A DNA stretch of 63,831 nucleotides, the filler included, from a bacterium (lineage in GTDB: Bacteria > UBP15 > UBA6099 > JAJRTR01), in the NCBI GenBank assembly GCA_024278215.1. It is 5 parts of 5 records of this genome, joined end to end, with 100 filler letters (N's around TTAATTAATTAA, not from the genome) between each part and the next. Parts side by side here need not be neighbours in the genome. Positions count along the whole stretch, not along the records: positions 19,034 to 31,266 come from JAJRTR010000059.1; 4 more parts are not named here. The stretch is one strand, 5' to 3'. The notes beneath the pieces are model-generated. The model was not told the origin of the DNA. It ran no database searches and worked only from the letters and a program-made list of their open reading frames with translations. The stretch's first letter is position 1, and every line of letters begins with the position of its first letter. The translations under genes and the position numbers were made by a program. Below, one piece after another: positions 4,088-60,032 of the stretch.

Positions 4088-6775
4088 ATGAGTAATACGG
4101 AAAACACAGGCACGACACAGACTTTTGATGTTCGAATAGAAAAACAGATGAAGGAGTCATACATAGATTACGCGATGAGCGTGATCGTAGGGCGCGCGCT
4201 TCCCGATGTTCGGGACGGGTTAAAACCGGTTCACAGGCGGATTCTCTATACTATGGGCGACCTGGGACTCACTCCGGAGAAGGCACACAGGAAATGTGCC
4301 AAGATCGTCGGAGATGTCATGGGGCGTTTCCATCCCCACGGCGACACGGCCATATACGATACGCTGGTGCGTCTCGCGCAGGATTTCAACATGCGCTATC
4401 CACTTGTCGACGGACACGGCAACTTCGGTTCCATCGACGGCGACAACGCGGCGGCCATGCGGTATACGGAAGCGCGAATGGCCAAGCCCGCCATAGACCT
4501 TCTGGCCGACATAAAAATGGACACTGTCGATTTCGCGGATAATTATGATTCCACTGAAAAAGAACCGACGGTGCTGCCGAATAAACTGCCGAACCTGCTG
4601 CTCAACGGCTCTTCGGGCATTGCCGTGGGGATGGCCACCAGCATTCCACCTCACAATATGAACGAAGTAATCGACGCGACAGTGAAGTTTATCGACAATC
4701 CGGAGACGACGGAAGTTGCCGATCTGATGGCGGACATCAAGGGTCCGGATTTCCCGACCGGCGGCGAGATTCTCGGAAAGCAGGGCCTGCGAGACGCCTA
4801 TGAAACCGGCAGAGGGAAAGTTACGGTGCGGGGCAGGGTCGTGGTCGAAACACAGAAAAACGGTCGCGAGCGGCTCATTGTGACCGAAATGCCCTATATG
4901 GTCAACAAGTCCAATATGATCGAAAGCATGGCGGACCTTGTGCGCAACAAGAAGATCGAGGGCATCACCGACATCCGCGATGAATCGTCACGAGAGGGCA
5001 TCCGGGTGGTCATCGAACTGAAAAGAGACGCAAACCCATACGTTGTCCAGAACCTGCTCTACAAACACACTCAATTACAGAATACTTTCAGCATAATCAT
5101 GCTTGCGCTCGACAATAACAAACCCGTTGTTCACACGTTAAAAGAAATGTTGTGGAAATTCATCGAACACCGCCGCGTGGTGGTGCGTCGACGCACGGAA
5201 TTCGAACTGAAAAAGGCGAAAGCACGCGCCCACATACTCGAAGGACTCCACATAGCTCTGGAAAATATCGACGAAGTTATCGCAATCATAAAGAAAAGCA
5301 ACGACGGCCCCACTGCACGTGCGGCACTCATAGCACGCTTTGAACTATCCGAAATCCAGGCGCAGGCCATACTTGACATGAGACTACAGAAACTTACCGG
5401 ACTGGAACAGCAGTCGCTGCTAGACGAACTTGAAAAACTGCTCGAGCAGATCGCCGAGTTCGAAGACATACTGGCGAATCCGCACCGCATCGACACGATA
5501 ATAAAGGAAGAACTCGTCGAGATGAAAGCGAAATACGGCGACGAGCGACGCACGGAGATCGCCGCGGGCTCGGCCGACTTCGACATCGAAGACCTCATCC
5601 AGCGCGAAGAAGTCGTCATCACCGTCACGCGCGCGGGCTACATCAAACGCCTGCCGGTAGACACCTACCGCAGCCAGGGGCGCGGCGGACGCGGCATCAT
5701 CGGCTCGACACAGAAAGCCGACGACATCATACGGCACCTCTTTGTCACTTCCAGCCACGATTACATACTCTTCTTCTCGAATCGCGGCCAGGTATACCGC
5801 ATGAAGGGCTACCAGATACCGCAGGCGAGCCGCACCGCCAAGGGCATCCCCATCGTCAACCTGCTACAGCTCAACGAGGGCGAATGGATCACCGCGACAA
5901 TCCCCATCACTGAATTTGCCGAAGACCATTACCTGCTTATGGTTACGAAATTCGGCATAGTGAAAAAAACAGTGCTCAGAGCGTTCGACACATCGCGCAA
6001 AGGCGGCATCCGCGCTCTGACACTCAGACAGGACGATCAGCTTCGCTATGTGCTCATGACAGATGGTGCGCAGGACATCATCCTCGCCACAAAAACAGGA
6101 CTTAGCATCAGGTTCCACGAATCCGATGTGCGCTTCATGGGACGCGCCGCCGCCGGTGTGCGCGGCATAAGGCTCGGCCCGGACAACGAAGTCGTCGGCG
6201 CGGGCATTGTCAACGACGACGCCTCGCTGCTTGTCGTCTGCGAAAAAGGATACGGCAAACGCACTTTGCTCAGCCAGTACCGCACGCAGAAACGCGGCGG
6301 CAAAGGCATCCTCACGATCAAAGCCTCGGAGCGCAACGGCAACGTCATCGGCATCGCCGTCGCGGACATCGACGAAGAACTCATGATGATCTCGGCAAAA
6401 GGCATCGTCATCAGGCAGAAGGTAGCGGACATCTCGGAAACGGTAGGCCGCAGTACAATGGGCGTACGACTGATGCGGCTCGGCAAAGGTGACAGCGTCG
6501 TCACATTCGAAGTATTCAAAAAAGAAGAGGTGGAGGAGAACGGCTACGGAGAAAACGGAGAAAATTCCGAAAACAATAATAATGATAATAACAATGAAGG
6601 TGAAAACGGCAACGCGGAAAACTCTGTCGAAAAAAACGAAGGCAACGAAGAAGCCGACACCTCTGGAGAAAGCTCCGAAGAAAACGCCGCAAACACAACA
6701 ACTGAAGCAGAAAACACGGCAGGAGCGGAAACTACCGTAGAACCCGACGCCGCGCCCGATACGGAAACCACATAG
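4088..6775 (+). CDS. gyrA: DNA gyrase subunit A with long acidic C-terminal tail
   Basis: [28 protein letters not shown], GyrA-box QGRGGRG, beta-pinwheel repeats. Confidence 0.98.
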
Positions 6776-6974: not shown

Positions 6975-7074
6975 NNNNNNNNNNNNNNNNNNNNNNNNNN
7001 NNNNNNNNNNNNNNNNNNTTAATTAATTAANNNNNNNNNNNNNNNNNNNNNNNNNNNNNNNNNNNNNNNNNNNN
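6975..7074. other. Artificial contig spacer
   Basis: N-run with a central TTAATTAATTAA six-frame-stop linker, 100 nt. Confidence 0.97.
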
Positions 7075-7079
7075 CAGTA

Positions 7080-7258
7080 GAGCCAATTGCAAAATTATGT
7101 TCGTAGCGAGGTCGAGCGAAATTGTTCCGAAGCAAGGCGGAGATGCGAAATCCCCGCAGGCGTACTTGTAGAGTACGTCGAGGACGATTTTACACCGACA
7201 ACGCAGCTATGGACAATAGCAGCCGACCGCAGCAGAATCATAATTTTGCAATTGGCTC
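7080..7258 (+). mobile_element. MITE copy D (179 bp)
   Basis: Perfect 20-bp TIR GAGCCAATTGCAAAATTATG...CATAATTTTGCAATTGGCTC. Confidence 0.9.
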
Positions 7259-17691: not shown

Positions 17692-18933
17692 ATGAAAGAA
17701 TTCAAACTCGAAATGTACGAATTCCGCGCGGTATACCTCGAATGCGGCCCGAACGCGGAGGAGATGATCGACAACACAATCGTGCGCCGCGACGGCAAAG
17801 AAGCAACCTCGCGATTCGACGCCGGCGAACGCTCGATCGAAGCGCTCGCGAACACAAACGCCAACTTCGCGATAGTTCCATACGATGTCGGCTTCCCGCC
17901 CGGCATAGCCGAACAGCAACACGAATTTTTCGCGGACATCACGAAAAAACTCAACGACCACGGCATCGAAACACTCGCACTGCTCACATCTTCTTCATAT
18001 CTCGTCGAGGGCGAATATGCGAAGGCCCGCTGGGGCGCGCTGCTGCCGGGACAAAGTGACGTGATTTATTCCGTCTTCTCAAGACGCGCTATGGCGTGCT
18101 GGAATAATACGGAATGGACCAACCGGCTCGCACTGCTCGTGCGCGGCGCAATGCAGTCGGGCGCAAGCGGGATTTTCTTTGATTTTCCATGCTTCGGATC
18201 AGCACCCATAGTGGTGAAGGGCAGGCTCGAAGGCCCCGCCGGCTGCCACTGCCCGGTTTGCAGACAGCAGTATCGCGCGTTCTCGGAAGAGACCGGCGCG
18301 TCGAAGAAAAACATACCGAAAAACCTGCGCGACCTCAGCGAGGGCAACGAAGGCAGACTCTATGCAGTGTGGCGCGCCGGGCGTTTGCGCGACGCGCTAG
18401 AAAAATTATTCGATGCCGCGCGAAATGAAAACACTGACGCCCTCACCGCCGTTTCTGTTCCGCATCTCACCACACTGCCCACACTTCCTCTTTTCGGGAT
18501 CGACCCGGAATGGGCGCTCACCGTTCCGGACATCTGCTGCGTCGAACACCATCTGGACCCGGCGATCTCGAAGTCGGGAATCGTCTATGAATCACCTGTA
18601 TTCAAAACACTGTATGCTTACTCGAAAAATCCGCTTCCCGCCGCGCTCGGCTGTGTATACGGGCCGTCGCCGGACATCGTGAAACCACCGAATGTATATG
18701 GCGCGTCCCAGGCGGGCGGGTTCTCCTGCGGTGTGTCGGCGCTGGTCAGAGGCGGGAAATACAACCAGTCGACATTTGAGGATGCCGCCGGAGCCGGGTT
18801 CATCACCGGCGAGCCGTATCAGGACCAGCGCGACACTGTGGCGGGACTCTACAACTGGATGGAAAAAAACTGGGACATATTCGAGAAGTCCGAGCCTGTC
18901 GCAGAAGTCGGCATCCTGTTCTCGATGAAAAAA
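17692..18933 (+). CDS. Hypothetical glycoside-hydrolase-like protein (partial, cut by contig end)
   Basis: Long ORF with GIFFD and CHCPVC, resembling GH42/GHL TIM-barrel proteins; divergent from galK. Confidence 0.55.
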
Positions 18934-19033
18934 NNNNNNNNNNNNNNNNNNNNNNNNNNNNNNNNNNNNNNNNNNNNTTAATTAATTAANNNNNNNNNNN
19001 NNNNNNNNNNNNNNNNNNNNNNNNNNNNNNNNN
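18934..19033. other. Artificial contig spacer
   Basis: N-run with TTAATTAATTAA linker. Confidence 0.97.
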
Positions 19034-19521
19034 GGAAATCGCAGACGATCGCACGGATGCGGAAACAAACAGCCTCCGACAAGCAGGCCTACGTTGTGAA
19101 AGCGGAAAAAATGTATGACCGGCATTTCGCCGGAATTGATGAGGCCGATGCATATATGATCTATCGCGGAGTGATTGAATTGTTGAGACATTCACCTAAG
19201 CACAAAGTAGCGATGGAAATCCGAAAAAACCTGAAGCCCATTGACATAAGTGCTGATATGTGATACAATGCGTTATGCTGGCTGCAACGGCGAATCGGGA
19301 GAAAAAAGATGACCTCGTGCGGTCGATAATCGGAAAAGCTTTTTCCCGAGGCTTCCGATTTTGCAGACGATCGCGCGAGGTTTTCTGTTTTTTATGGCGG
19401 TGGCGGGACGCAGGCCCTCCTTACCTGGAGCCGACGGAGACACCTTGCCTGTACGCAGAGCAAGAAGGCCGTAATCGTGTTCGACTCCCGATGCCGCTAA
19501 GATTTTTTAGAAGGAGTTGGA

Positions 19522-19995
19522 ATGAATTACAGACGGGACGTAGCATATTTTAGTTATGTGGTTCGCCATAAATGGTTCGTCATGCTCGCATGTTTTCGGT
19601 GTAAACTCTTTTGGCGAGGCGTGACGCACGATTTATCCAAGTTTAGGCCCGATGAGTTTTTCCCCTACGCTCGACGTTTTTACAATCCGGACGGCTCAAC
19701 GCGGACGGTTGTGTCGAGCAACTACCATGACCCACTATTTGATAGGGCATGGGCCTTACATCAGAGGCGAAATAAGCATCATTGGGAGTGGTGGGTATGG
19801 CCTGTGAAGGCTCATGCAGAAAAAATAATGCCTATGCAAATAGACGATATTGTCGAGATGGTCTGTGACTGGGAAGGTGCCGGAAGAGCGCAAGGCCATG
19901 GGAATGACGTAGCGTCGTGGTATAAGAAAAACAAAAGCAAAATGAAGCTGCATGACGAGACTATATTCATTCTCGAAGCGCTTATTGGGCAATGA
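19522..19995 (+). CDS. Phage HD-like protein (DUF5662-type)
   Basis: RHKWFV, HDLSKF, HQRRNKHHWEWW, EMVCDW; AGGAG RBS. Confidence 0.75.
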   Translation: MNYRRDVAYFSYVVRHKWFVMLACFRCKLFWRGVTHDLSKFRPDEFFPYARRFYNPDGSTRTVVSSNYHDPLFDRAWALHQRRNKHHWEWWVWPVKAHAEKIMPMQIDDIVEMVCDWEGAGRAQGHGNDVASWYKKNKSKMKLHDETIFILEALIGQ

Positions 19996-20750
19996 ACTAC
20001 ATCGACCTGTTTTCGGGAATAGGGGGATTCGCGCTCGGCGCGTATTGGGCCGGATTGAAAGTTGAAAACCACTATTTCAGTGAAGTCGATCCATACTGCG
20101 TGCAACTGTATAGGGAGAGATTCCCTGAATCAATACCACTAGGAGATATAAGCGCTTATGAGAACTGGGCCCTCCCGGACGGAGAATACATTGTTTCCGG
20201 CGGGTTCCCTTGCACACCGTTCAGTGTTGCCGGGAAGCAAAGAGGCGAGGAGGATGACCGCTACCTCTGGCCGGCGATGTTTGGCGTTATACAAAAAGTC
20301 AGGCCCCGTTGGGTCGTTTGTGAGAACGTTACTGCTATCGACGGCATGGTACTCGAATCTGTGCTTTCTGACCTGGAGTCCGCAGGGTACGAAACGGCGC
20401 CGCCGCTTGAAATACCGGCTGTCGCGGTCGGTTGTTACGGAGAACGGTATCGCACGTGGATTATTGCCTATGCCGACGGCGAGCGAGCCGACCAATGGTC
20501 CAACAACGAACGCCACTCGAACGAGTGGAGTATGGAGGCGCACGACCAGGAAGGGCGCGCGCCACGGAGCCGGGTTTCACGACGTCTTGTACGCACTCTA
20601 TGGCGTGAAGAAGCCGTCCCCGATTTTTTACGAAGCGATTATGTTCTACCCGACAGGGTGGACAGAGTTAGGGCACTCGGAAATGCGATTGTCCCTCAAA
20701 TAGCGGAACAGTTGTTTCGCGCGATTATCACAGCGGAATATGAACGTTGA
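19992..20750 (+). CDS. DNA (cytosine-5) methyltransferase
   Basis: DLFSGIGG, GGFPC, ENV, RYRTW, LGNAIVP. Confidence 0.93.
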   Translation: MNYIDLFSGIGGFALGAYWAGLKVENHYFSEVDPYCVQLYRERFPESIPLGDISAYENWALPDGEYIVSGGFPCTPFSVAGKQRGEEDDRYLWPAMFGVIQKVRPRWVVCENVTAIDGMVLESVLSDLESAGYETAPPLEIPAVAVGCYGERYRTWIIAYADGERADQWSNNERHSNEWSMEAHDQEGRAPRSRVSRRLVRTLWREEAVPDFLRSDYVLPDRVDRVRALGNAIVPQIAEQLFRAIITAEYER

Positions 20751-21507
20751 ATGGATTATTTATTTAGCTTCCACGAGCAGCGTCGAGAATTGCGGCCGAT
20801 GATTAAATACTTCGGTTCCAAATGGCGGAGCGCGCTCCGATATCCAGTACCGAAATATGCAACAATAATCGAGCCGTTTGCGGGAGGAGCCGGATATAGC
20901 TTGAGGTACCCGGATCACAATATCGTTTTGATAGACAAGGATCCAATAATAATATCGATATGGAGATATTTACAAACGGTTACTCCGGATGAAATTTTGG
21001 CATTGCCTGATGTCGATACATCTGTCGATGATCTTGATATATGCCAACAGGCTCGATGGCTTATAGGATTTTGGCTGAATACCGGCGCTCGCTCATGCAA
21101 AACGCCGTCTTCATGGATGAGGTCAGGAATTAACCCGGGGTCATTTTGGGGGGAAAGTTTGCGCCGGCGTATTGCAGCACAAGTAGCCAGAATTCGACAT
21201 TGGGAGATGCATTGTAACGATTATGCCGCCATAGATGTTCCAGAGCCGGCGACCTGGTTCGTCGATCCGCCATATCAGATGCTAGGAATGTATTATAGAT
21301 ATAACAGGAAAACTATTGATTATGCAGCATTAGCGGAATGGTGCAAGACGCGCCCAGGGCAAGTTATCGTGTGCGAACAAGAAGGCGCAGATTGGCTACC
21401 GTTCAAGAAACTTATTCACTCGCATACGGCACGACACACTATGTCATCGGAGGTTATTTGGACAAATGCTTAACGGGAAAATTGTTTCGCGCGATTATCA
21501 AAGCGGA
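20712..21507 (+). repeat. 26-bp direct repeats (20712-20737 and 21482-21507) flanking the adenine MTase gene
   Basis: TTGTTTCGCGCGATTATCA(C/A)AGCGGA, one mismatch. Confidence 0.85.
20751..21473 (+). CDS. DNA adenine methyltransferase (Dam/D12-like)
   Basis: KYFGSK, EPFAGGA, FVDPPY; true start may be ATG 20799. Confidence 0.85.
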   Translation: MDYLFSFHEQRRELRPMIKYFGSKWRSALRYPVPKYATIIEPFAGGAGYSLRYPDHNIVLIDKDPIIISIWRYLQTVTPDEILALPDVDTSVDDLDICQQARWLIGFWLNTGARSCKTPSSWMRSGINPGSFWGESLRRRIAAQVARIRHWEMHCNDYAAIDVPEPATWFVDPPYQMLGMYYRYNRKTIDYAALAEWCKTRPGQVIVCEQEGADWLPFKKLIHSHTARHTMSSEVIWTNA

Positions 21508-21516
21508 GGAGAAACA

Positions 21517-21729
21517 ATGACTCCGGAACTGTTCCAGAAGCTCAAACGATACCTGTGGGTATTTGCTTCGCCTATGGGAGCCGGAACATGGGATGAACAT
21601 GGTTCGTTTCGCAATCCACACAAGGGAAATCGTCGGTATCTCTATCGGTGGGATGCTAAACCGAAATCTGACGTTTGGCGGCCGATGGAATATCAGGAAG
21701 CGTTGTTGATATGGCCTATAAGAGATTAA
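21517..21729 (+). CDS. Phage hypothetical protein
   Basis: GGAGGAG RBS before ATG 21517; tight packing with neighbours. Confidence 0.55.
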   Translation: MTPELFQKLKRYLWVFASPMGAGTWDEHGSFRNPHKGNRRYLYRWDAKPKSDVWRPMEYQEALLIWPIRD

Positions 21730-22265
21730 GGAATAGCATACTGCTGCGCGGCGGGAGTTGGTTTAACGACGGGTCTCTCTGTTGCATAGTAAATCGTCTC
21801 GGCAATGATCCGTCGAGACGTAGCAGATATTCCGGATTCCGAATCGTTCGAAAAGCAAACCCGCCAAGCAATAAAGGAGAAAAGATGAAATTACAGGTGA
21901 GCCGAGGCGGGAACTGGGTCAACTTCGCGGCCTACTGTCGTGTGGGGAAACGTTACTACGACGCCCCGTCGAGCCGCTATAACGGAGTTGGGTTCCGTGT
22001 TGTACGGAATGCAAAACCAATAAGTCATGAAGGAGAAAAGATGAACTTACAGGTGAGACGCGGAGGGACCTGGTTCTACCACGCGCCCTACTGTCGCGTG
22101 GCTGGTCGGCACTACATCGCTCCGTCGTGCTGTTACGAAACCACCGGCTTCCGTGTTGTACGGAAGGCACAATCTATTGAACCCAGTCGTGATCTAATAA
22201 TCACGATTGAAATAAAACTAACCCAGGAGGGTGGAGAATGGACAAAGACAATCTCGTTAAGGTAA
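21711..22265 (+). CDS. ORF with three tandem 156-bp units, each encoding an FGE/CLec C-terminal (DGR VR-like) segment
   Basis: RGGxW...C...R....PS......GFRxVR cores at 21747-21851, 21903-22007 and 22059-22163; units 2 and 3 preceded by AAGGAGAAAAG-ATG. Confidence 0.75.
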   Translation: MAYKRLRNSILLRGGSWFNDGSLCCIVNRLGNDPSRRSRYSGFRIVRKANPPSNKGEKMKLQVSRGGNWVNFAAYCRVGKRYYDAPSSRYNGVGFRVVRNAKPISHEGEKMNLQVRRGGTWFYHAPYCRVAGRHYIAPSCCYETTGFRVVRKAQSIEPSRDLIITIEIKLTQEGGEWTKTISLR

Positions 22266-22843
22266 CGAAGGGGACTTTCCAGATGGGCTCGGACGACGGG
22301 CACCAGGACGAACGGCCTGTTCATGAAGTCGAAATAGCCCGCGACTTTTTGATTTCAAAGTATCCGACGACGTTCGAGCAGTTTGACGCATTCTGCGAAG
22401 CAACCGGAAGAAACAAGCCCAACGACAGCGATTGGGGCCGTGGCGAAAGACCGGCAATCAACGTCAACTGGTATGACGCTATCGCTTACTGCAACTGGCT
22501 GAGTGAGAAGGAAGGTCTCACGCCCTGCTACACGATCGACGGAGAGCAGGTGGAGTGTGATTTCGACGCCAACGGCTATCGACTCCCGACCGAGGAAGAG
22601 TGGGAATACGCCGCTCGCGGAGGGACGGAATCACAGGGCTATAAATACGCCGGCTCGAACAGCCTCGAAGACGTGGGCTGGTACTGGGGAAACTCAGGCG
22701 GCCGGACGCATCCAGTCGGCGAGAAAAAGCCGAACGAACTCGGAATCCACGACATGAGCGGGAACGTGTGGGAATGGTGTTGGGACGAGTACGACTCGAA
22801 GGCATATGAGAAAAAATGGAAACGAAATATAATCGTCGGATAA
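22238..22843 (+). CDS. FGE-sulfatase (CLec-fold) domain protein lacking its C-terminal RGGSW...GFR segment
   Basis: FQMGS, DERPVHEV, PAINVNWYDAIAYCNWLS, YRLPTEEEWEYAARGG, PNELGIHDMSGNVWEWCWD, then stop. Confidence 0.9.
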   Translation: MDKDNLVKVTKGTFQMGSDDGHQDERPVHEVEIARDFLISKYPTTFEQFDAFCEATGRNKPNDSDWGRGERPAINVNWYDAIAYCNWLSEKEGLTPCYTIDGEQVECDFDANGYRLPTEEEWEYAARGGTESQGYKYAGSNSLEDVGWYWGNSGGRTHPVGEKKPNELGIHDMSGNVWEWCWDEYDSKAYEKKWKRNIIVG

Positions 22844-23211
22844 TGCGCGGCGGGGGCGGGGACAGCTACGCGACATTCTCTTGCGTGGCACATCGCGACT
22901 ACGACAATCCGTCGCGCTGCAGCGGCATCATCGGATTCCGGGTAGTACGCAAAGAGGAAGGGGGGGAAAGGAAAGTAAAAATCGACAGGAATGGGGATTT
23001 ATGGATCGAACGCAGGGGGAAACTCGTCCGACAAAGCTGCATGCGGGCAACCACAATGGGGACATGTGGGGAACATTGCCCGATGTTTCATTATTGGGAA
23101 AGAGATGGTCTTTGGTATGTCCGCTTATGTACCCAGCGCGAGTGGGACTGGGTCTTCGAGCAATTTGAAATCGAGGACCGATCTGGCTTAACAGATGAAA
23201 ACGAGATATAA
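22816..23211 (+). CDS. VR-like cassette 4 fused to a Cys-rich phage hypothetical domain
   Basis: Core 22846-22950, in the -1 frame relative to the FGE gene; continues into KIDRNGDLWIER...CGEHCP. Confidence 0.65.
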   Translation: METKYNRRIMRGGGGDSYATFSCVAHRDYDNPSRCSGIIGFRVVRKEEGGERKVKIDRNGDLWIERRGKLVRQSCMRATTMGTCGEHCPMFHYWERDGLWYVRLCTQREWDWVFEQFEIEDRSGLTDENEI

Positions 23212-23383
23212 TCGTCGGATACTACGTGGCGGAAGCTGGAGCTACTACTTAATCTACTGTCGCTTAGCTTACCGCACCGCAGTTATTCCGCCGGGGCGTT
23301 ACTACAACGTCGGCTTTCGCTTCGTACGGAATACTGATGGCTCGGTGATGAGAATGGGGGTTGATGATGCGCCAGATAATTGA
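23195..23383 (+). CDS. VR-like cassette 5 (stand-alone short ORF)
   Basis: Core 23225-23329 RGGSW...GFRFVR; leader nearly identical to that of cassette 4. Confidence 0.65.
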   Translation: MKTRYNRRILRGGSWSYYLIYCRLAYRTAVIPPGRYYNVGFRFVRNTDGSVMRMGVDDAPDN

Positions 23384-23735
23384 TCTTGCAAAAAAGCATA
23401 GACGCAAAGTAGTCGCCGGGGTACTTTCGACCGTTGCAATCGCGGCTGTGGTATCGGGCGTATCCGTCCTGCTTTACCAGCACAAAGACATTTCGCGTCT
23501 GGAACGAGAGGTGCGAGAGAAGCGAGCTGAGATTGAATCGATGCAAACATATATGCGCTTCTTAATCGACCGTTCGAAGGAAGACCGCGCCGCTCTGACG
23601 GCGGAACGGGAGATGCGGCAATTTTTCGAAACGAATATCCAACACGCAGCGAAAGCTTTGGATTCCGCCCTCGATGATTACTACACGGCACAGTGGCGGA
23701 TATATGAGCTTGAAGAAGAGCTGAAGAAAGAGTAG
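23361..23735 (+). CDS. Phage membrane-anchored coiled-coil protein
   Basis: One hydrophobic helix followed by a charged heptad-like region. Confidence 0.6.
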   Translation: MMMRQIIDLAKKHRRKVVAGVLSTVAIAAVVSGVSVLLYQHKDISRLEREVREKRAEIESMQTYMRFLIDRSKEDRAALTAEREMRQFFETNIQHAAKALDSALDDYYTAQWRIYELEEELKKE

Positions 23736-23748
23736 AATCAGAATTGGA

Positions 23749-24225
23749 ATGGCTATCAAGCTATCAGATATAAAGCTGAACGATCAAAACCCACGCAAAG
23801 CGACCGACAGGCAGATAGAAAAGCTCGCGAAGTCAATATCTGAATTCCCAAAAATGATGGCGTTGCGCCCGATCATAGTCGATGATGATAACGTCGTCCT
23901 CGCCGGGAACATGCGCTATCGTGCTTTGCGACTGCTTGGCAAAACAGAGATTCCTAATGCATGGGTCAAAAAAGCATCGACGTTAACTGATGAAGAGCGG
24001 CGGCGGCTTGTGATCGTTGACAATGCCAATTTCGTGGAATGGGATTATGATTCGTTGGGGCAATGGGATATTGGCGAACTCGGCAATTGGGGGGTTGGCG
24101 AGAATGTAATATCAAACATTGATATTCCTAAGTTTGAACCCGTAGATGAATCAGAAGTCCCAGATTTTATGCGTGAAAAAAAGCTTATGATTTGTCCTGA
24201 GTGCGGGCACGAATGGGCGGTTTAG
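23749..24225 (+). CDS. ParB N-terminal-like domain protein with C-terminal CPECG
   Basis: NDQNPR, RPIIVD, LAGNMRYRAL, IVDN...EWD. Confidence 0.85.
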   Translation: MAIKLSDIKLNDQNPRKATDRQIEKLAKSISEFPKMMALRPIIVDDDNVVLAGNMRYRALRLLGKTEIPNAWVKKASTLTDEERRRLVIVDNANFVEWDYDSLGQWDIGELGNWGVGENVISNIDIPKFEPVDESEVPDFMREKKLMICPECGHEWAV

Positions 24226-24833
24226 TTATTGATTGGTGTAATTTCTCCGCAGCGAAATATGCGGTTATGCGCTGGCATTATTCAAAGCGCATGCCTGCTC
24301 CGCCACGCGCATGCATTGGCGTGTGGGAAAATAATATATTCATTGGCACAATTATTTTTTCCCGTGGCGCGTCGGCTGGTATTGGATCGCCGTATAAATT
24401 ATCAAATACAGAATGTGTAGAATTGACACGAGTTGCACTTGGGAAGCACGAGGAACAAGTGTCGCGAATATTATCAATTGCCATCAAAAAACTGAAAAGG
24501 AAATGCCCTCCCTTGCGATTGATCGTGTCATATGCTGACCCGTGGCAGGGACATATGGGGAAGATTTATCAAGCCGGCAACTGGATATATACCGGACAGA
24601 CGGCCCCGGCAATTGTATATTTCGACGAATCAGGGAAAGAAATTCATAATAGATCAATCGGTGTGACAGGATATAGAAAACAATTCGGCGTTATGAAAAA
24701 GACGCGAACGCCTGATGAATTGCAAAAGACTGTTAGGCCGCCGAAATACAGATATCTATATCCGCTTGATTCTGCAATGCGAAAACGTATATTATTACTT
24801 TCGAGGCCGTATCCGTCTGCGCACGTGGTGTAA
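24213..24833 (+). CDS. Mom-like (phage Mu Mom family) DNA adenine hypermodification enzyme
   Basis: WHYS, GVWE, ELTRVAL, IVSYAD..QGHMGKIYQAGNWIYTG, KYRYLYPL...YP. Confidence 0.8.
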   Translation: MGGLVIDWCNFSAAKYAVMRWHYSKRMPAPPRACIGVWENNIFIGTIIFSRGASAGIGSPYKLSNTECVELTRVALGKHEEQVSRILSIAIKKLKRKCPPLRLIVSYADPWQGHMGKIYQAGNWIYTGQTAPAIVYFDESGKEIHNRSIGVTGYRKQFGVMKKTRTPDELQKTVRPPKYRYLYPLDSAMRKRILLLSRPYPSAHVV

Positions 24834-24889
24834 TGGAGCATTTGTAGATTCCATCTGCAAGGAGGGGGTTCGAATCCCGCCCGTGCGCT
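24819..24889 (+). tRNA. Atypical tRNA-Gly (anticodon TCC)
   Basis: Acceptor GCGCACG/CGTGCGC + T73; D arm GTGT-AATGGA-GCAT; anticodon arm TGTAG-ATTCCAT-CTGCA; T arm GGGGG-TTCGAAT-CCCGCC with one extra base; no encoded CCA. Confidence 0.8.
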
Positions 24890-24919
24890 GAAATATATGA
24901 AAAACAAGGGATAAACAAT

Positions 24920-25216
24920 ATGCCGTGGCAAAAAGGACAATCAGGAAATCCCAAAGGGCGGCCACCGAAGGTCAAGTGCATCCCGGACATCCTCAGGAAA
25001 ATAGCAGAGGAAGAAGGTACGAGTGACGGCAGATACACGAAAATTGAAGTCATAATGCGGAAGGTGTTCGAGTTTGCGCTTGAAGGGCGTCCGTGGGCCG
25101 TGCAATTCATCGCGGAACGGACGGAAGGCAAGGTGCCGGACAAGCATGAAATTTCCGGCCGTGATGCGGCTCCGATCGGGATGAAAGTCGTCCTCGACAA
25201 TGGCAAAGACTCGTAG
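24920..25216 (+). CDS. Putative terminase small subunit (DUF5681-like)
   Basis: KGQSGNPKGRPP N-terminus, ERTEGK; immediately upstream of TerL. Confidence 0.75.
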   Translation: MPWQKGQSGNPKGRPPKVKCIPDILRKIAEEEGTSDGRYTKIEVIMRKVFEFALEGRPWAVQFIAERTEGKVPDKHEISGRDAAPIGMKVVLDNGKDS

Positions 25217-26408
25217 AAGCATCACATATCGGTTATTGCCTGCCCAGACCAAGGTTTATCTACTCGAAAAGAAGTACAAAGCTTTTATCGGTGGAATAGG
25301 GTCGGGGAAAACATGGTTCGGCGCGTGGTGGTCGGTGCAACAACTCAATGGTGTGGGAGACGGTATGATTCTCGCGCCGACATACAGGATGCTCGAAGAT
25401 GTGACGCAACGACAATTTATTGATTTTCTTGACGCGCACAATATCCAATATGTGCATGAGACTGGCAAAAGCAGGGTCAGGACGTCGAGTGGGTATGTAT
25501 TTTTGCGTTCGGCAGAGCACCCGGAGCGATTGCGCGGAACGAATCTTGCCTGGGCATGGGGGGATGAGGCCGCGTTATGGAGAGTCGGCGCCTTCAAAAT
25601 CCTGCTTGGCCGGCTGCGGAAAAATGATGCACGCGCCCTGTTGACTACTACTCCTGCTGGGTTTAACTGGGTGTATGAGTATTTAGAGGAATTGCAGTCG
25701 GAACAATTCGGATATGTAATCGGATCAACGCGTGAGAACGTGCACCTTGATAATGAATTTGTATCGAGCCTAGAAGAGGCGTACACTGCAGAATACGCGG
25801 CGCAGGAGATCGACGGTCAATTCGTTGCATTCGAGGGGCTGGTGTATCCCGAGGTGCGAGACGGAGTACATATCATCGAGCCGTTCGATATCCCGTCCGA
25901 CTGGAGGCGGTATCGGGGTATTGATTTCGGATTTGTAAATCCATTTGTGTGTTTATGGGCCGCAGTTGATCACGATGGACGAATCTATTTCTACCGAGAG
26001 CATTACAAGACAAAAACATTATTGGTAGACCATGCCCGTATGATCAAGGCTGCGGATGTTTGCAATGATCAGAGAGACGTAGTACGATATAGTCAAACCG
26101 TGGCAGATCATGACACGCAAGATGTCGCGGAGTTACGGTCACACGGCATAGCGACAACGAAGGCACGAAAGAGCGTGTCGGTGGGAATTCAGAAGGTGAA
26201 AGCCAGGCTTGCAGTACAAGCAGATGGGAAGCCCAGAATGTTTTTTTTCTCGTCGTTGGTGCATACTCGTAAAGAACTGCGGTCATATCGATGGTCTGAT
26301 AAGGCGTTAAAAGACGAGCCGATAAAAGAAAGCGACCACGCGATGGATGCAATGCGGTATATTGTAATGGCGGTAGACGGCCCGAAGGTGGGGGTGCGAA
26401 TAGTATGA
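25200..26408 (+). CDS. Terminase large subunit
   Basis: Walker A GGIGSGKT, Walker B WGDEAA, TTTP, nuclease GIDFG and DHAMDAMRY. Confidence 0.95.
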   Translation: MAKTRRSITYRLLPAQTKVYLLEKKYKAFIGGIGSGKTWFGAWWSVQQLNGVGDGMILAPTYRMLEDVTQRQFIDFLDAHNIQYVHETGKSRVRTSSGYVFLRSAEHPERLRGTNLAWAWGDEAALWRVGAFKILLGRLRKNDARALLTTTPAGFNWVYEYLEELQSEQFGYVIGSTRENVHLDNEFVSSLEEAYTAEYAAQEIDGQFVAFEGLVYPEVRDGVHIIEPFDIPSDWRRYRGIDFGFVNPFVCLWAAVDHDGRIYFYREHYKTKTLLVDHARMIKAADVCNDQRDVVRYSQTVADHDTQDVAELRSHGIATTKARKSVSVGIQKVKARLAVQADGKPRMFFFSSLVHTRKELRSYRWSDKALKDEPIKESDHAMDAMRYIVMAVDGPKVGVRIV

Positions 26409-28426
26409 AATCGATTCCCGCAATGATTGCCGACGGAATTAGAACACGAATACATAGATGGGCCTATACAAAAGCAACAACGCAGATCAGATTGACCGAC
26501 CCTGGCGTGCGCAAGGTCTTTGGGATTGACCTCGGCGACCAAGAGGAATTGACCGACCCGTTCAAACAACTCCCGATTGTGCGTGCAGCGATAAGCGCAA
26601 AGGCAGCGAACATCGCGCAGGTGCCATTTGTGATTCGGCAGCGTGGGGCGGACGAGCCGGTGCCCGAGAACCATCCGCTCGTGGAATTGTTCAACGATAT
26701 CAATCCGTATCTCTCGAAATATGATTTTTTCGAACTGATAGTGACATACATGGACGGATGGGGAGACGCGCCGATTTTTCTTGAACGCGAGTTTGAAAGA
26801 GCGCCTGGAATCCCACAGTTTTTGTGGATGGAATTCCCGACAATGGTCCGCGCAGCAAAGTACCAACAGAGGTTCGTGTGATGGTTGGTGCGGCGCGGGA
26901 AGCAACAAGAATTTTTTCTGCCTGAAGAAACAATCCTGATTAAATATCCGAACCCATATGACAAGTTGAGGGGGTTATCGAAGCTGTCTGCGTTGGAGAT
27001 TACCAACAAGGCCGATTGGGGCGCGATCAAGTCGAACCAGATGATTTTCGAAAATGACATCGGAGCAGGTGTTGTTTTTTCGGCACCTGAGGGCGTCGAG
27101 CTGGAAGATGCCGATTACAAGCGGATAGAACAGGAGCTCATCAAAAAGCGCGAAGGCGCGAAGTATCATCACAAGGCTATGATCCTCTCCGGCGGAATGA
27201 AGGCCGACGACCTGCGAAAGACGAATCGTGACATGCAGTATATCGAATTGCGGAAGTTCAACCGCGAAGACGTATCGATGGTCATGAAGGTTCCGAAGCC
27301 TGAGCTTGAATTGTACGAGGATATTAATTACGCGACGGCGCTTAGCTCCGATCGGTCGTTCTGGAAAAAAACACTGATACCGCTTATGCGGAAGATCGAA
27401 GACGCGCTCAACACGCAGTTTTTCTACCGGCGTGGGTACGAGTGTTATTTCGATGTAGCGCAGATCGACGTACTCAATAGCGAGGTGCTCGAAAAGGCCG
27501 ATACTGCGCAAAAATATATCGCAATCGGATATACGCTGAACCAAGTCAATGAGCGTCTAGGGCTCGGGTTCCCTGAGGTCCCCTGGGGGGATGATCCGTT
27601 CGCAGGAACAGCACTACTGCCTGAGCCGCAGGTGCGCGACGTGACGCCGAAAGCGCCAGAATCCATAATGAGCGAAGTGCATCGTAAGCAGTGGCTGGAC
27701 ATCGTGCAAAAAATCCTGCCCGAGGTAGGGCGCGCAAGTAAAAGCGTAAAAGCCTATTTCAAAAAGATCGAAAGAAAAATCCTGCGCGAAATGATCAAGC
27801 GCGTCGATGGGCGCGTGGTTGAGATCAAGGCGCCGACTGATGATTACGAATGGATTGAAGATCTGTTTGAAGAATCGGAATTGAAACGGATCATCGAAGC
27901 GCATCATCGTGCAGCGGCGAAAACCGGCATCGTGTCGATAGATACTCCGGCAAAAGTGGACCCAGACCCTATCGTCAGGGCTGTCCTGGCTGCGCATGGC
28001 GGGGACAAGATAGCCGATATCAATCGGAGAGCGAGCCGATACGTAATTGAAAAGTTGCGCAGCATCCTCGACCAGGCGATTGCCGATGGTGTGCCTGAAG
28101 AAGAAGTGGCGCAGAGAATAGCGACCGGATTGAAATCGAGCATGGCGAACATTTCGCGTCGCGCGCGGACAATCGCGCGGACAGAAATACACGGCGCGTA
28201 TTCGCAGGGGCGACACGAAACGATGATGCAGACGGCGCCCGTGCGGCTGCGGTGGCTCAGTACGCATGATGACGCTGTGCGTGAGAGCCACGAAATGATG
28301 GACGGCGAAGTCACCGACCCGGGAGAGATGTTTTCAAATGGGCTGCGATTTCCGCTCGATCCGAACGCCACAGACCCGGGGGAAGTGATAAATTGTCGGT
28401 GCGCCGTGATAGCGGAATATGAATAG
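26405..28426 (+). CDS. Portal protein fused to MuF/gp7-like head morphogenesis domain; in-frame TGA at 26879-26881
   Basis: ORFs 26405-26881 and 26885-28426 are in one frame; portal motifs YPNPYDKLRGLS, DMQYIE, TLNQVNERLG; MuF motifs RARTIARTE, WLS..D..VRESH, VINCRC. Confidence 0.85.
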
Positions 28427-28429
28427 GAG

Positions 28430-29161
28430 ATGATGATGGATAAATTGATAGCGGTATCGTACGGAATCAAAACCGTCGAGGCTAAAGGCAAAACACTCTA
28501 TCGTGCGACTGCGAACACAAAGGCAATTGACCGTGACAATGAAATCATCCTGCCGTCAGGCTGCACGAATCTGAAACAATGGCTCGCAACGAACCCAGTG
28601 ATTTTTTACGGGCATGCGTGGATGTCCTGGGATGGCGAATCTGAGGAGAAATTGCCGATCGGCAGGGCGGAGAAAGCGCACCGAAGAAAATCAGACGGAG
28701 CTATTGAGATTGCCTGGTGGTTCCACGAGGGTGATTTTGCGCAGAAGGTGAAATATTTAGTGGACGAAACAGTGCTCAATGCAACGAGTATCGGATTTAT
28801 CGCTAAGGAATGGGAAAGCAATCCGGAAGTGATCGAGGAAATCATTGAGTCTGAAGGCATCGAACAGGAGAAGAAGGCAAAACTTCCGGGAGCGGTCTGC
28901 ACGAAATGGGAATTATTAGAATTGTCTGTCGTGTCGATCCCGTCGAACAGGGAAGCGGAAATCCTGCGGTCGCTTGAGCCTGAAAGCGCGCTTGCGTTGG
29001 CGCTCAAGTCCGTGCACTTGCCGGCAGGCAAGCGAAGTGATACAATGTCCAATAGCGAAGATGTAGAAGAGGTGGAAGCAGACGCGACGCCGCCTCAACG
29101 CTGCAAGACGTTCGCAGAAAAATATCAGGGGGTGTTTCAATGGACAAGCTTGAAGCACTGA
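28430..29161 (+). CDS. HK97-family prohead protease
   Basis: IDRDNEII, NPVIFYGH, PIG, TSIGF, ELLELSVVSIPSN. Confidence 0.88.
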   Translation: MMMDKLIAVSYGIKTVEAKGKTLYRATANTKAIDRDNEIILPSGCTNLKQWLATNPVIFYGHAWMSWDGESEEKLPIGRAEKAHRRKSDGAIEIAWWFHEGDFAQKVKYLVDETVLNATSIGFIAKEWESNPEVIEEIIESEGIEQEKKAKLPGAVCTKWELLELSVVSIPSNREAEILRSLEPESALALALKSVHLPAGKRSDTMSNSEDVEEVEADATPPQRCKTFAEKYQGVFQWTSLKH

Positions 29162-30480
29162 AAAAGAATGCCGAACTGCTCAAAAAATTGATCGAGCAGA
29201 CCGAGGACGAGCAGACGGCGAAAGCATATTCGGAGCAGTACGACGAATGTCTCCGTGAAATCGCGCGAGAAGAAGCGCGCGAAGAGCAGAAGACGGAGAT
29301 CAAGGCGCTCAAAGACGAAATCGCCGCGATGAAATCGTCTCAAGCAAAAATCTTCGACGTTATCGAGGCGGGGACGATTACCGTCGGTGCCGGGAAGACG
29401 GAGTCCTATAAGGGCTTCAATCTGAACCGCGAAGTGAAGCTCGCCGGTATGCGGGCGATCAAACATCAGGGGATCATCAACCGGAGGTTCGCTGCGGATC
29501 CTGAACTCGCTATGAATTTGTCGAAAATGTTCATCGACAAGTACGTCGAGGCGAGCCGGAAATCGCCGTTGGAAATCGCAAGAGCAAAAGCGGCGATGCA
29601 GGAAGGGACCGATCCCGAAGGTGGATATCTCACGCCGACCGAACAGCGATTCGAGCTCGTCGCGTATGCGCGCGAGGCTTCTATCGCGCTGCAACGGGCG
29701 ACGCACATCTCGATGACCTCCGACGTGATGACCATTCCGACCGAGTTGACCAAAGTCTCGGTAGCTGTCACGGCCGAAGAGGCGCAGGCGACCGAGACCG
29801 AGCCGACGTTCGACCAGGTAACGTTGACCGCGAAGCGGTACGACGGATACGGAAAAACGTCGAACGAACTCCTCGAAGACGCGGCAGTCAACGGCGGAAT
29901 CGTAGGACTGCTCCTCGACCAATTCATCGAGGCGACCGGCAAAGCGATCGATTCGGTCGTGTTCACGGCTCCTGGGGATCCTGCGTCGGGTATTTTCTCG
30001 GCAAAAGCCGGCGCGTCGGTCGTGTTCGATTCCGGCTCGACCGCCTTCTCGGAAATCATCGAGGCCGACCTCCGCGAAGCGATTCGCAAGGTGAAAAAGG
30101 AATACAGGGACGGCGCCGTGTGGATGATGCACGACGAGCTCCTGTGGGACTACATCCGTGGACTGAAAGACTCGAACTGAAACTACCTGTTCGCCGAAGC
30201 GCGAAGCGGTGGCCCGCCGCCGCAGTCGATCTGGGGCTACGATGTCGTTTCGAGCTCGCAAATGAACGCAGTGTCTGATAGTGCCGCAGGCGCGACCTTC
30301 GGCGCTTTCGGAAATCTCCGGGGTGCATACATCGGAGACAGAATCACGAACTTCGATATCATGATCGATCCATACACGCTTATGGAGTATCATCAGTCGA
30401 GGTTCTATTGCTACACAAGATGGGCGGTAGTAATCGCGCTGCCGAACTATTTCTGCCGAATCGTGACGGCTGCAAGCTAA
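29140..30480 (+). CDS. HK97-fold major capsid protein; in-frame TGA at 30178-30180
   Basis: EGGYLTP, SNELLED; LKDSN*NYLF...IWGYDV continues in frame to TAA 30478-30480. Confidence 0.88.
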
Positions 30481-30489
30481 GCGATGTGA

Positions 30490-30519
30490 CGGGGCGTCCT
30501 TCGGGGCGCTCCGGTTTAT
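30490..30519 (+). terminator. Hairpin/terminator after the capsid gene
   Basis: CGGGGCGTCC-TTCG-GGGCGCTCCG stem-loop, short T tract. Confidence 0.6.
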
Positions 30520-30532
30520 ACCGAGAGGACGA

Positions 30533-30694
30533 ATGACCAAATCATATAAACGAGAATGTCCGAATTGCCGACGCAAAACGCATGATGAGCATGAAACAAT
30601 ATGTATCGCCTGCGGGCACGCAACGAGGGAATACGTTCCGCCGAGGACGTCGTTCAAAAGCAAAGTCGTAACGAAATCCCCACCCGAGAAATAA
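30533..30694 (+). CDS. Small zinc-ribbon protein (53 aa; below the ORF-track cutoff)
   Basis: GAGG RBS; MTKSYKRECPNC...CIACG...PPEK*. Confidence 0.6.
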   Translation: MTKSYKRECPNCRRKTHDEHETICIACGHATREYVPPRTSFKSKVVTKSPPEK

Positions 30695-30695
30695 C

Positions 30696-31266
30696 GTGCT
30701 TCGCCTCAATTGGGCGCATTCATACGATGCGATAGGCAACGCGCTCGGATATTCGACGCATGCAAAAATGCTTAGAGCCGCATTAGAGCGTCGATCGGAT
30801 GTCGAGATTGTAGACGACGACTCTGCTCCTATTTCAGTCCACATCGTTACGCCGGATATTTACCTGCCTGATTACCAAAAATTCAACGTGCTCTATACGA
30901 TGTACGAGATGGTCGAGCTGCCGCCGCGATGGATTGAGCCGCTGCAATATGCCGACCTCATCGTTGTACCGTGTTCGCATAATCAGGATTTATTCAGCCG
31001 GTATGTGGCGGATATCCCGGTTGATGTTTGTCTTGAGGGAGTAGAGGTAGACAAATTCACTTTTTATGCTCGGCAGTTTCCGAAATTATACCGGTTTGTG
31101 TTTTACTGGTGTGGCGCGTCGAATCCTCGGAAAGGGTATCACTACACGATTGCAGCATTGGCCGCGTTCAACAACACCCACCCGGATCTAGCAAGTAAAA
31201 TCCTGCTGTACATGAAAACGACGCAGGTAAGTGATCAAGAACATATTATCGGATACAAGGCAGGCA
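30696..31266 (+). CDS. Phage glycosyltransferase, GT-B/GT4-like (partial)
   Basis: GYSTHA, YTMYE...P..W, DLIVVPC, GVE...F, NPRKG. Confidence 0.75.
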
Positions 31267-31366
31267 NNNNNNNNNNNNNNNNNNNNNNNNNNNNNNNNNN
31301 NNNNNNNNNNTTAATTAATTAANNNNNNNNNNNNNNNNNNNNNNNNNNNNNNNNNNNNNNNNNNNN
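31267..31366. other. Artificial contig spacer
   Basis: N-run with TTAATTAATTAA linker. Confidence 0.97.
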
Positions 31367-59957: not shown

Positions 59958-60032
59958 GGTGAGTGTAGCTTAGTCGGTTAAAGCGCCAGATTGTGGATCT
60001 GGAGATCGGGGGTTCGAGTCCCCTCATTCACC
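59958..60032 (+). tRNA. tRNA-His (GTG)
   Basis: G-1, acceptor GTGAGTG/CATTCAC, C73, anticodon arm CCAGA-TTGTGGA-TCTGG, GGTTCGAGTCC T arm. Confidence 0.95.

Follow-up and report, generated by a model that had tools for sequence, protein, structure and literature searches.

A family of aberrant, glycine transfer RNA (tRNA-Gly)-like RNAs was found to be near-obligately linked to genes for Mom-family DNA-modification proteins, in both search directions and in several gene arrangements. One member lies at positions 24819-24889 on the + strand of the window, the stretch of 63,831 nucleotides (nt) analyzed here from a bacterium of the lineage UBP15; UBA6099; JAJRTR01 (assembly GCA_024278215.1), where it shares 15 nt with the 3' end of a mom gene (24213-24833, +). 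The window consists of 5 records joined with 100 filler letters between neighboring parts, which may be nonadjacent in the genome, and positions 19,034-31,266, including the element, come from JAJRTR010000059.1. Because Mom of phage Mu has been published to move glycine from Gly-tRNA(Gly) to adenine N6 in double-stranded DNA (Silva et al., Nat Commun 2026, PMC13219725), the RNA is best read as a dedicated glycyl donor for the neighboring Mom, insulated from translation and belonging to a large tRNA-Gly-derived family fused to Mom-like genes. We regard this reading as probable. The glycine source of Mu Mom had been given correctly in the first-pass annotation of the window.

In the window, ARAGORN called a 71-nt tRNA-Gly(tcc) with precisely these boundaries, and the Rfam tRNA model matched 24819-24888 at 29.2 bits, barely above the gathering score of 29, and had to insert one base into the T stem's 3' strand. 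All stems of the RNA are intact. The acceptor stem, GCGCACG with CGTGCGC, provides G1-C72, C2-G71, and G3-C70 and is followed by the discriminator U73; the anticodon loop reads AUUCCAU (A32, U33, U34, C35, C36, A37, and U38), and the 6-nt D loop AAUGGA contains GG. The T arm, GGGGG-UUCGAAU-CCC[G]CC, has a bulged G between positions 63 and 64 and no regular 5-bp T stem, and GAA follows U73, so that CCA is not encoded. The identity set of bacterial glycyl-tRNA synthetase (GlyRS) consists of G1-C72, C2-G71, G3-C70, U73, C35, and C36, and the window RNA has all six features. The mom gene ends in GCG CAC GTG GTG TAA (stop at 24831-24833), the RNA begins 3 nt after the PYP codons, and the final four mom codons plus the stop (24819-24833, +) form RNA positions 1-15, covering acceptor stem and D arm. 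The overlapped cloverleaf, the glycine identity elements, the extra base in the 3' T-stem strand, A32-U38, and the missing CCA had all been described in the first pass and were recovered here; the D loop, which it called short, is shorter, by just about one base compared to ordinary tRNA-Gly(UCC).

A normal tRNA-His in the same window (59959-60032) scored 70.2 bits with the Rfam model, and the low score is therefore a property of this RNA and not of the genome. Six cellular tRNA-Gly genes scored 60.6 to 72.9 bits. Folding of the single sequence was uninformative, with a minimum-free-energy structure other than a cloverleaf (z -2.3).

With ATG 24213 taken as the start codon (GTG 24201 is a possible alternative), 24213-24833 encodes a full-length Mom-family GNAT protein; the first-pass annotation had called the gene Mom-like. 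It matched PF25680 over profile positions 2-202 of 202 at 152.9 bits (E 1.1e-44; curated cut-off 27.1), phrog_1384 "Mom-like DNA modification protein" at E 2.4e-51, and the Mu Mom structure 8bv8 at E 6.9e-8. A tblastn comparison with the Mu record gave nothing at E <= 1e-3, and the tie to Mu Mom runs only through the Pfam and PDB entries. R111 and S124 are essential in Mu Mom, and H58, Y59, D149, R151, and Y159 are important (PMC13219725). In the 8bv8 alignment, six of these seven residues are kept in the window protein, with R73, S84, H22, Y23, D109, and Y119 corresponding to R111, S124, H58, Y59, D149, and Y159, respectively; the position of R151 is occupied by W111, and R151 is not conserved in the Mom clade of the window.

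The linkage was analyzed in a forward set of 167 Mom-like loci, 87 from viral contigs and 80 from prokaryote genomes, with Mom proteins 38 to 54% identical to that of the window. ARAGORN gave 18 tRNA calls there, 12 of them in the orientation of mom and no more than 14 nt from its 3' end (9 Gly, 2 untyped, and 1 "Val" that is actually NCC); the remaining 6, within 2.5 kb of the loci, were 2 Met, 1 Leu, 1 Lys, 1 undetermined, and a second Gly. A stem scan for a 7-bp acceptor stem plus T arm placed an element directly after the conserved PYP(K) motif in most loci, with about seven false positives (L039, L042, L094, L096, L103, L105, and L127), and was superseded by a covariance model, R1, built from an alignment of 51 elements (A2) and applied at E <= 0.01. 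R1 was positive at 80 of the 87 viral and 49 of the 80 genome loci (129/167), and 5 viral and 1 genome loci added by the stem scan brought the element-bearing loci to 135 of 167. The window element scored 60.5 bits (E 5.5e-12). Together with the window and three cultured phages, the forward-set elements make up a set of 139, in which 135 RNAs share the strand of mom and occupy its 3' end near PYP(K), and four (L058, L072, L079, and L084) are 0.5 to 0.7 kb off. General tools detect the family poorly: ARAGORN made a call in 12 of the 135 element-bearing loci, and Rfam at its gathering score detected 0 of 20 other elements.

In the reverse test, viral contigs were retrieved by the bulged T-arm/acceptor motif alone, giving 80 loci, at least 7 of them shared with the forward test. 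A Mom-like gene was present on 76 of the 80 contigs and abutted the element on the same strand in 75; in the other, L191, Mom lies 1.3 kb upstream of the RNA. No Mom was found in 4 of the 80 loci, three of which end at a contig edge (L203, L217, and L253), while the fourth, L184, spans only 1.4 kb. The Mom-like open reading frame (ORF) was 5' of the RNA on the same strand in 52 loci. In a further 23 the Mom domain starts after the RNA, on the same strand, with an open frame running through the RNA, and in this 5' arrangement the gap is 4 to 25 nt when the profile match reaches the domain start and up to about 200 nt for partial matches. The arrangement was checked by ORF listing and Pfam in L222 and L206 (E 1e-39 and 6e-27; RNAs at 6534-6606 and 7035-7107, respectively). 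Mom-like genes of this class are more divergent, and their annotatable ORF begins upstream of the RNA. The co-occurrence of tRNA-Gly and Mom homologs, set as a check in the first pass, was thus seen from both sides.

The linkage was independent of the arrangement. Locus L056 (73-2551) carries two tandem ParB-Mom-RNA modules with divergent Mom paralogs, each with its own RNA (1025-1098 and 2478-2551). In Microbacterium phage MenE (L171, 2630-2701), an annotated tRNA-Gly(ccc) with a regular T stem lies on the opposite strand, 33 nt past a Mom-like "acetyltransferase." In 79 of the 118 element-bearing loci with at least 600 nt upstream, a ParB_N gene closely preceded mom, compared to 8 of 38 element-less loci, both counts being lower bounds from single-query tblastn; this agrees with the ParB-Mom-tRNA module proposed earlier. 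As a separate observation, second RNA copies were noted at L031 2023-2089, L109 1045-1108, and L253 6280-6420, in tandem in the last.

Since most Mom-like loci have this abnormal RNA in the same position, the window cloverleaf is more than a chance occurrence. It is extremely improbable that the RNA is a chance neighbor, a decayed tRNA pseudogene, or a leftover integration site in a defective prophage. The surrounding phage-like block is only about 11 kb long, with a TGA-interrupted portal gene and no tail genes, and the bulge of the window RNA is a G compared to an A in 80 of 93 distinct long relatives, both in its favor; the intact stems, the same offset of the RNA in 135 other loci, and the two-way Mom-RNA linkage speak against it.

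The cloverleaf is supported as a real structure. In alignment A2, 92.1% of the cells pair compared to 67.3% after shuffling (0 of 500 shuffles as high) and 35 to 45% in slid controls, and double-change cells number 258 compared to 69 in shuffles. Pair 1-72 is G-C in 50/50 rows, 2-71 is C-G in 50/50, and 3-70 is G-C in 49/51; acceptor pairs 4 to 7 vary freely with compensation, and positions 32 and 38 are pairable in 44 of 50 rows. Position counts were taken from the 93 distinct long elements aligned to R1. The GlyRS identity positions are near-invariant, with G1 in 93, C2 in 93, G3 in 91, C70 in 91, G71 in 93, C72 in 93, U73 in 92, C35 in 93, and C36 in 91 of the 93. U33 is kept in 53 of the 93 and A37 in 74, position 34 is T in 65, A in 19, C in 6, and G in 3, and position 55 is G in 46 and T in 45. 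The bulge between positions 63 and 64 is A in 80, G in 5, and absent in 8, and the conserved T-stem defect set as a check in the first pass is accordingly found as a purine bulge in 85 of the 93. Selection therefore acts on the GlyRS identity nucleotides and is relaxed at U33, U55, and the D-loop elbow, which decoding tRNAs keep.

A short class of 65 to 68 nt, without a normal D arm, accounts for 64 of the 139 elements. Examples are L020 3094-3158 and L032 3091-3155, which show an acceptor stem, an A-bulged T arm, and a central NCC hairpin; MAFFT/RNAalifold on the class resolved only the acceptor and T arms. Long and short classes swap between close Mom relatives, with 26 changes on the Mom tree.

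It is quite unlikely that the element is a working translational tRNA-Gly(UCC) that replaces Gly-tRNA drained by Mom, or matches codon usage, and not a private donor. The canonical 7-nt anticodon loop of the window copy with U33 and A37, its TTCGAAT T loop, the GG in its D loop, its typing as tRNA-Gly by ARAGORN, and the commonness of phage tRNAs fit that role, as does the use of every tRNA-Gly isoacceptor by Mu Mom (PMC13219725). However, GGA makes up 19% and GGC 51% of the glycine codons in a crude set of window ORFs, the T-stem bulge at the EF-Tu contact region is kept through most of the long elements, and the Rfam score falls far below those of real tRNA-Gly. The loss in relatives of U33 (40/93), U55 (48/93), or the whole D arm (in the short class) is hard to square with decoding.

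The anticodon-loop positions 32 to 34 and 37 to 38 are highly variable, and in phage tRNA work such variability is expected for escape from enzymes that target the anticodon loop. This would suit a counter-defense decoy or spare against tRNA-targeting defenses, such as anticodon nucleases or GNAT toxins acetylating Gly-tRNA-Gly, that travels with antirestriction genes such as mom, and among the structural relatives cited for Mom is TacT, whose substrate is Gly-tRNA-Gly (PMC13219725). A decoy is very unlikely, though, as it leaves unexplained the base-for-base fusion to mom in three arrangements and the presence of one RNA per Mom paralog in L056, and no other tRNA species is so linked, with only the 2 Met, 1 Leu, 1 Lys, and 1 undetermined calls near the 167 loci.

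The register in which the mom frame reads into the element varies among all three possibilities, and the conservation is therefore at the RNA level. The mom stop falls beyond the element in 109 of the 139 cases, the frame then running through the whole element, inside it in 23 (window included), and before it in 6, with none within the locus in 1. The conserved "GG..PT..LQ" tails of many predicted Mom proteins correspond to read-through translation of the T arm, acceptor strand, and CCA. A conserved protein tail as the cause of the conservation was rejected on the three registers, the stops before, inside, and after the RNA, and the covarying stems.

Cleavage at the RNA 5' end would strip the mom stop codon in the window, as follows from the coordinates and as the first-pass annotation had pointed out, and at least 65 nt of the frame in most relatives. 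Together with the same-strand position of the element, abutting or overlapping the mom frame in nearly all loci, and the frame that runs through it, this is in favor of a cis-acting processing or regulatory element, that is, an RNase P/RNase Z signal ("tRNA punctuation") that defines one end, 3' or 5', of the mom mRNA, or makes a non-stop message limiting a toxic enzyme, and never carries glycine. Tight regulation of Mu mom is known, Com being annotated as a translational regulator in the Mu record. An exclusively cis-acting role is nevertheless unlikely. Acceptor/T-arm shape would suffice for it, and the invariant G1-C72/C2-G71/G3-C70, U73, and C35-C36 would not be needed, nor would a switch of the discriminator to A73 in an archaeal host; the link also survives with the RNA on the opposite strand in MenE, and in 92 of the 139 elements U73 is followed by an encoded CCA, which is typical of an aminoacyl acceptor end. 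Processing-signal and glycyl-carrier roles are mutually compatible and not exclusive.

The distribution of the RNA was followed on a tree of 176 Mom sequences (FastTree only, midpoint root). A clade of 171 with 99% support holds every linked tRNA-Gly-like RNA, comprising 137 on the same strand and the opposite-strand gene of MenE. RNA absences are concentrated in three subclades, namely, actinomycete prophages, Yersinia/Serratia prophages, and Bacillales with phiEf11, and presence or absence requires 7 changes on the tree. Mu, Listeria LP-026, Salmonella SP-031, Geobacillus PK3.6, and Polaribacter P12002L fall outside the clade and gave no RNA match. At the Serratia control locus L303 (1350-1460), an RtT RNA (RF00391) between tRNA-Tyr and tRNA-Gly was noted, an ordinary arrangement.

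Members were also found in cultured phages. Salinibacter phage B2_17 has an RNA annotated as tRNA-Gly that scored 90.7 bits with R1, and its Mom-like gene matches in two pieces, possibly through a frameshift. In Arthrobacter phages Sicarius2 (L170, 2571-2641; 57.8 bits) and BarretLemon (L173, 2068-2138; 60.6 bits), the RNA is unannotated and overlaps the last 21 nt of the Mom-like coding sequence. Among 329 Methanobacteriota genomes, Mom-like matches occurred in 4 and the RNA in two mutually related ones, both with A73 like the host tRNA-Gly. These A73 elements (L116/L310 2097-2173 and L312 1298-1374) have an irregular anticodon loop with ACC and are mistyped as Val by ARAGORN. The discriminator may thus track the host, the support for this coming from only one archaeal lineage with two related loci. 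L008 is another A73 element, and a U73 element, L128, occurs in a metagenome-assembled genome labeled Woesearchaeota that is possibly misbinned.

For the probable glycyl donor, the following course is proposed. The RNA would be cotranscribed with mom and excised by host tRNA-processing enzymes, and the host would add CCA, a necessary step for the window copy. Host GlyRS would then glycylate it, which is proposed because the full glycine identity set is retained, and the neighboring Mom would take the glycyl group from it for N6-adenine modification of double-stranded DNA. The T-stem bulge, and in relatives the loss of U33, U55, or the whole D arm, would bar the RNA from ribosomal translation, and enzyme and cosubstrate would therefore form a private pair. 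From the sequence comparisons we infer expression, processing, charging, use by Mom, and exclusion from EF-Tu and the ribosome, and the last of these is the weakest point of the mechanism. Loss of the mom stop, or of a longer part of the frame, on RNA excision makes a coupling of enzyme output to donor output plausible.

Several observations weigh against such a donor. The window copy is of the most tRNA-like kind, typed as tRNA-Gly by ARAGORN, and because U33, A37, T54-T55-C56, and G18-G19 are kept, it might decode too. The EF-Tu "specificity" pairs are 49-65, 50-64, and 51-63 (Schrader and Uhlenbeck, PMC3239215), as had been stated in the first pass, and all three are G-C in the window RNA, which according to the table of that paper makes normal to tight EF-Tu binders. 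Since these pairs are strong, evasion of EF-Tu would have to stem from the bulge, which appears to sit on the T-stem strand read by EF-Tu, unlike the staphylococcal route discussed below. The private glycyl donor proposed earlier is partly supported, in the parts that could be computed. The bulge is not indispensable, since 27 of the 139 elements lack it. Neither is the RNA required for Mom chemistry, as Mu, other Mom phages, and the three subclades do without it. R1 also matches cellular tRNA-Gly, at 36 to 54.8 bits, and because of this small margin the 60.5 bits alone cannot separate the window RNA from a normal tRNA-Gly; the call in the window rests on position, bulge, and the poor fit to the general tRNA model. 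Finally, the phage-like block may be satellite-like or defective, and with the portal TGA the activity of the window's own copy is uncertain.

In a bolder and tentative form, which we consider doubtful, Mom-like enzymes and their fused RNAs would be natural orthogonal pairs, each paralog with its own GlyRS-chargeable, ribosome-blind carrier, in some cases a D-armless mini-tRNA of 65 nt. With the RNA encoded within the enzyme frame, translation through the RNA and excision of the RNA would be mutually exclusive, and this exclusivity would set the enzyme-to-donor ratio. At its boldest, unprocessed mom mRNA would be glycylated at its tRNA-like end and used in cis.

If the glycyl-donor reading is true, the RNA would be the first virus-encoded aminoacyl carrier for a nonribosomal reaction and the first for DNA modification, and it would extend the 2026 finding of charged-tRNA use by Mom. 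It would also explain the conserved "C-terminal tail" of many predicted Mom proteins and expose the annotation blind spot of Rfam and ARAGORN noted above. Minimal natural GlyRS substrates, seemingly shaped to avoid translation, would be of interest for orthogonal tRNA engineering. In heterologous tests of Mom homologs, cloning of the ORF only may drop the cognate donor or unknowingly carry it.

In the window, the module begins with a ParB_N-domain protein with a C-terminal zinc ribbon (23749-24225, +; ParB_N E 7.8e-7 and Zn_Ribbon_YjdM E 1.4e-5 in Pfam, phrog_620 E 1e-23), whose gene overlaps the mom start. A candidate weak sigma-70-like promoter match (24766-24795, +) lies inside the mom 3' end, 24 nt 5' of the RNA, and may be taken as an optional feature; it reads TTGATT, a spacer of 16 or 18 nt, and TATATT or TATTAT, with 9/12 matches, and 7 sigma-70-like sites were counted in the 2-kb region compared to 3.0 +/- 1.7 in shuffles. 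Downstream, a DUF5681 small protein (24920-25216, +; Pfam E 1.5e-15) and the terminase large subunit (25200-26408, +; Terminase_6N E 6e-14) follow, so that the RNA is placed within a phage gene block between the mom and terminase genes. The phage-like block of about 11 kb (19.5-30.2 kb) encodes two DNA methyltransferases, FGE-sulfatase-domain ORFs, ParB, Mom, and the RNA, as well as terminase, portal, protease, and major head protein; neither tail genes nor an integrase were seen in it. The portal gene is split by an in-frame TGA (26879-26881) into an N-terminal part (26405-26881) and a Mu F-domain remainder (26885-28426) in the same frame, which could reflect a nonsense mutation, read-through, or recoding. 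The rest of the window is bacterial chromosome with gyrB, gyrA, aldehyde:ferredoxin oxidoreductase, a NifH-like gene, and others.

A direct repeat of 101 nt, perfect and built of 8-nt steps, brackets the phage-like block at 18933-19033 and 31266-31366, 12,333 nt apart, and the window Mom protein is also found on a separate contig whose length, 12,233 nt, matches the unit that the repeats enclose. These features point to a mobile or satellite-like element of 12.3 kb that has genes for head and packaging and lacks tail genes; the alternative is an assembly join. An origin of the RNA as an integration site was rejected on position, between mom and terminase genes and away from an integrase or the 101-nt repeats. 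Within the block, a C5-cytosine methyltransferase-like ORF, named from motifs by eye (19992-20750), adjoins a D12-class N6-adenine methyltransferase recognized by Pfam (20751-21473), and the last 50 nt of the former (20701-20750) are repeated with 78% identity at 21471-21520, from the end of the D12 gene. The stretch from the methyltransferases to the ParB-Mom module holds cargo that is unusual in a phage-like block, namely, a run of three to four short ORFs (21675-23383), each with an FGE-sulfatase (SUMF1-like) domain and with 156-nt internal repeats.

In comparison to known systems, the window Mom shares with Mu Mom the enzyme family PF25680, most of the named active-site residues, and presumably the glycyl-transfer chemistry. 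It differs in belonging to a separate clade with 99% support, and Mu lacks an RNA of this kind up to 3.2 kb from mom and scavenges host tRNA-Gly, its Mom accepting all three E. coli tRNA-Gly isoacceptors and rejecting Gly-tRNA(Ala) (PMC13219725). Searches of the main text of that paper turned up nothing relevant on tRNA-like or phage-encoded tRNA, gene neighborhood, or ParB.

Like ordinary phage tRNAs, the window RNA is a tRNA-shaped gene on a phage-type element, detected by ARAGORN and barely by Rfam; unlike them, it is tied to one protein family and not to tRNA clusters or codon usage. A 3' tRNA-like structure (TLS) of a plant RNA virus reportedly accepts tyrosine, and such structures resemble the present RNA as viral tRNA mimics that terminate a coding RNA and for which charging by a synthetase of the host is expected. 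Plant-virus TLSs are the 3' ends of RNA genomes with roles in replication and translation, whereas the RNA described here is a cloverleaf encoded in DNA, has an acceptor stem of the ordinary 7 bp, and is linked to a DNA-modifying enzyme. To our knowledge, glycine specificity has not been reported for TLSs. A full-text literature search, in which most subscription journals were not covered, returned no account of Mom in linkage with a tRNA or tRNA-like gene and no paper pairing "Mom-like" with "tRNA-Gly."

In Staphylococcus aureus, nonproteogenic tRNA-Gly isoacceptors supply FmhB/FemA/FemB (Rietmeyer et al., NAR 2021, PMC7826273), which bears out the first-pass statement on nonribosomal glycine donors in staphylococci. 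The concept is alike, in that extra tRNAs charged by GlyRS are poor partners of EF-Tu and the ribosome and are favored by a nonribosomal aminoacyl-transferase. The staphylococcal tRNAs are cellular, confined to the staphylococcal lineage, serve cell-wall synthesis, and are discriminated via D and T stem-loop sequences (PMC7826273), whereas here the element is of phage type, the target is DNA, and the RNA gene is fused to the enzyme ORF. The T stem also differs, with strong G-C pairs plus a bulge and many D-armless relatives, and poor EF-Tu binding is a prediction here. The window RNA does not belong to the staphylococcal class, given its other source and its G-C pairs at 49-65, 50-64, and 51-63, and the likeness would be one of function. 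The nearest known idea would thus be the staphylococcal partition of tRNA-Gly, of which the Mom-linked RNA would be a viral, DNA-directed, gene-fused variant.

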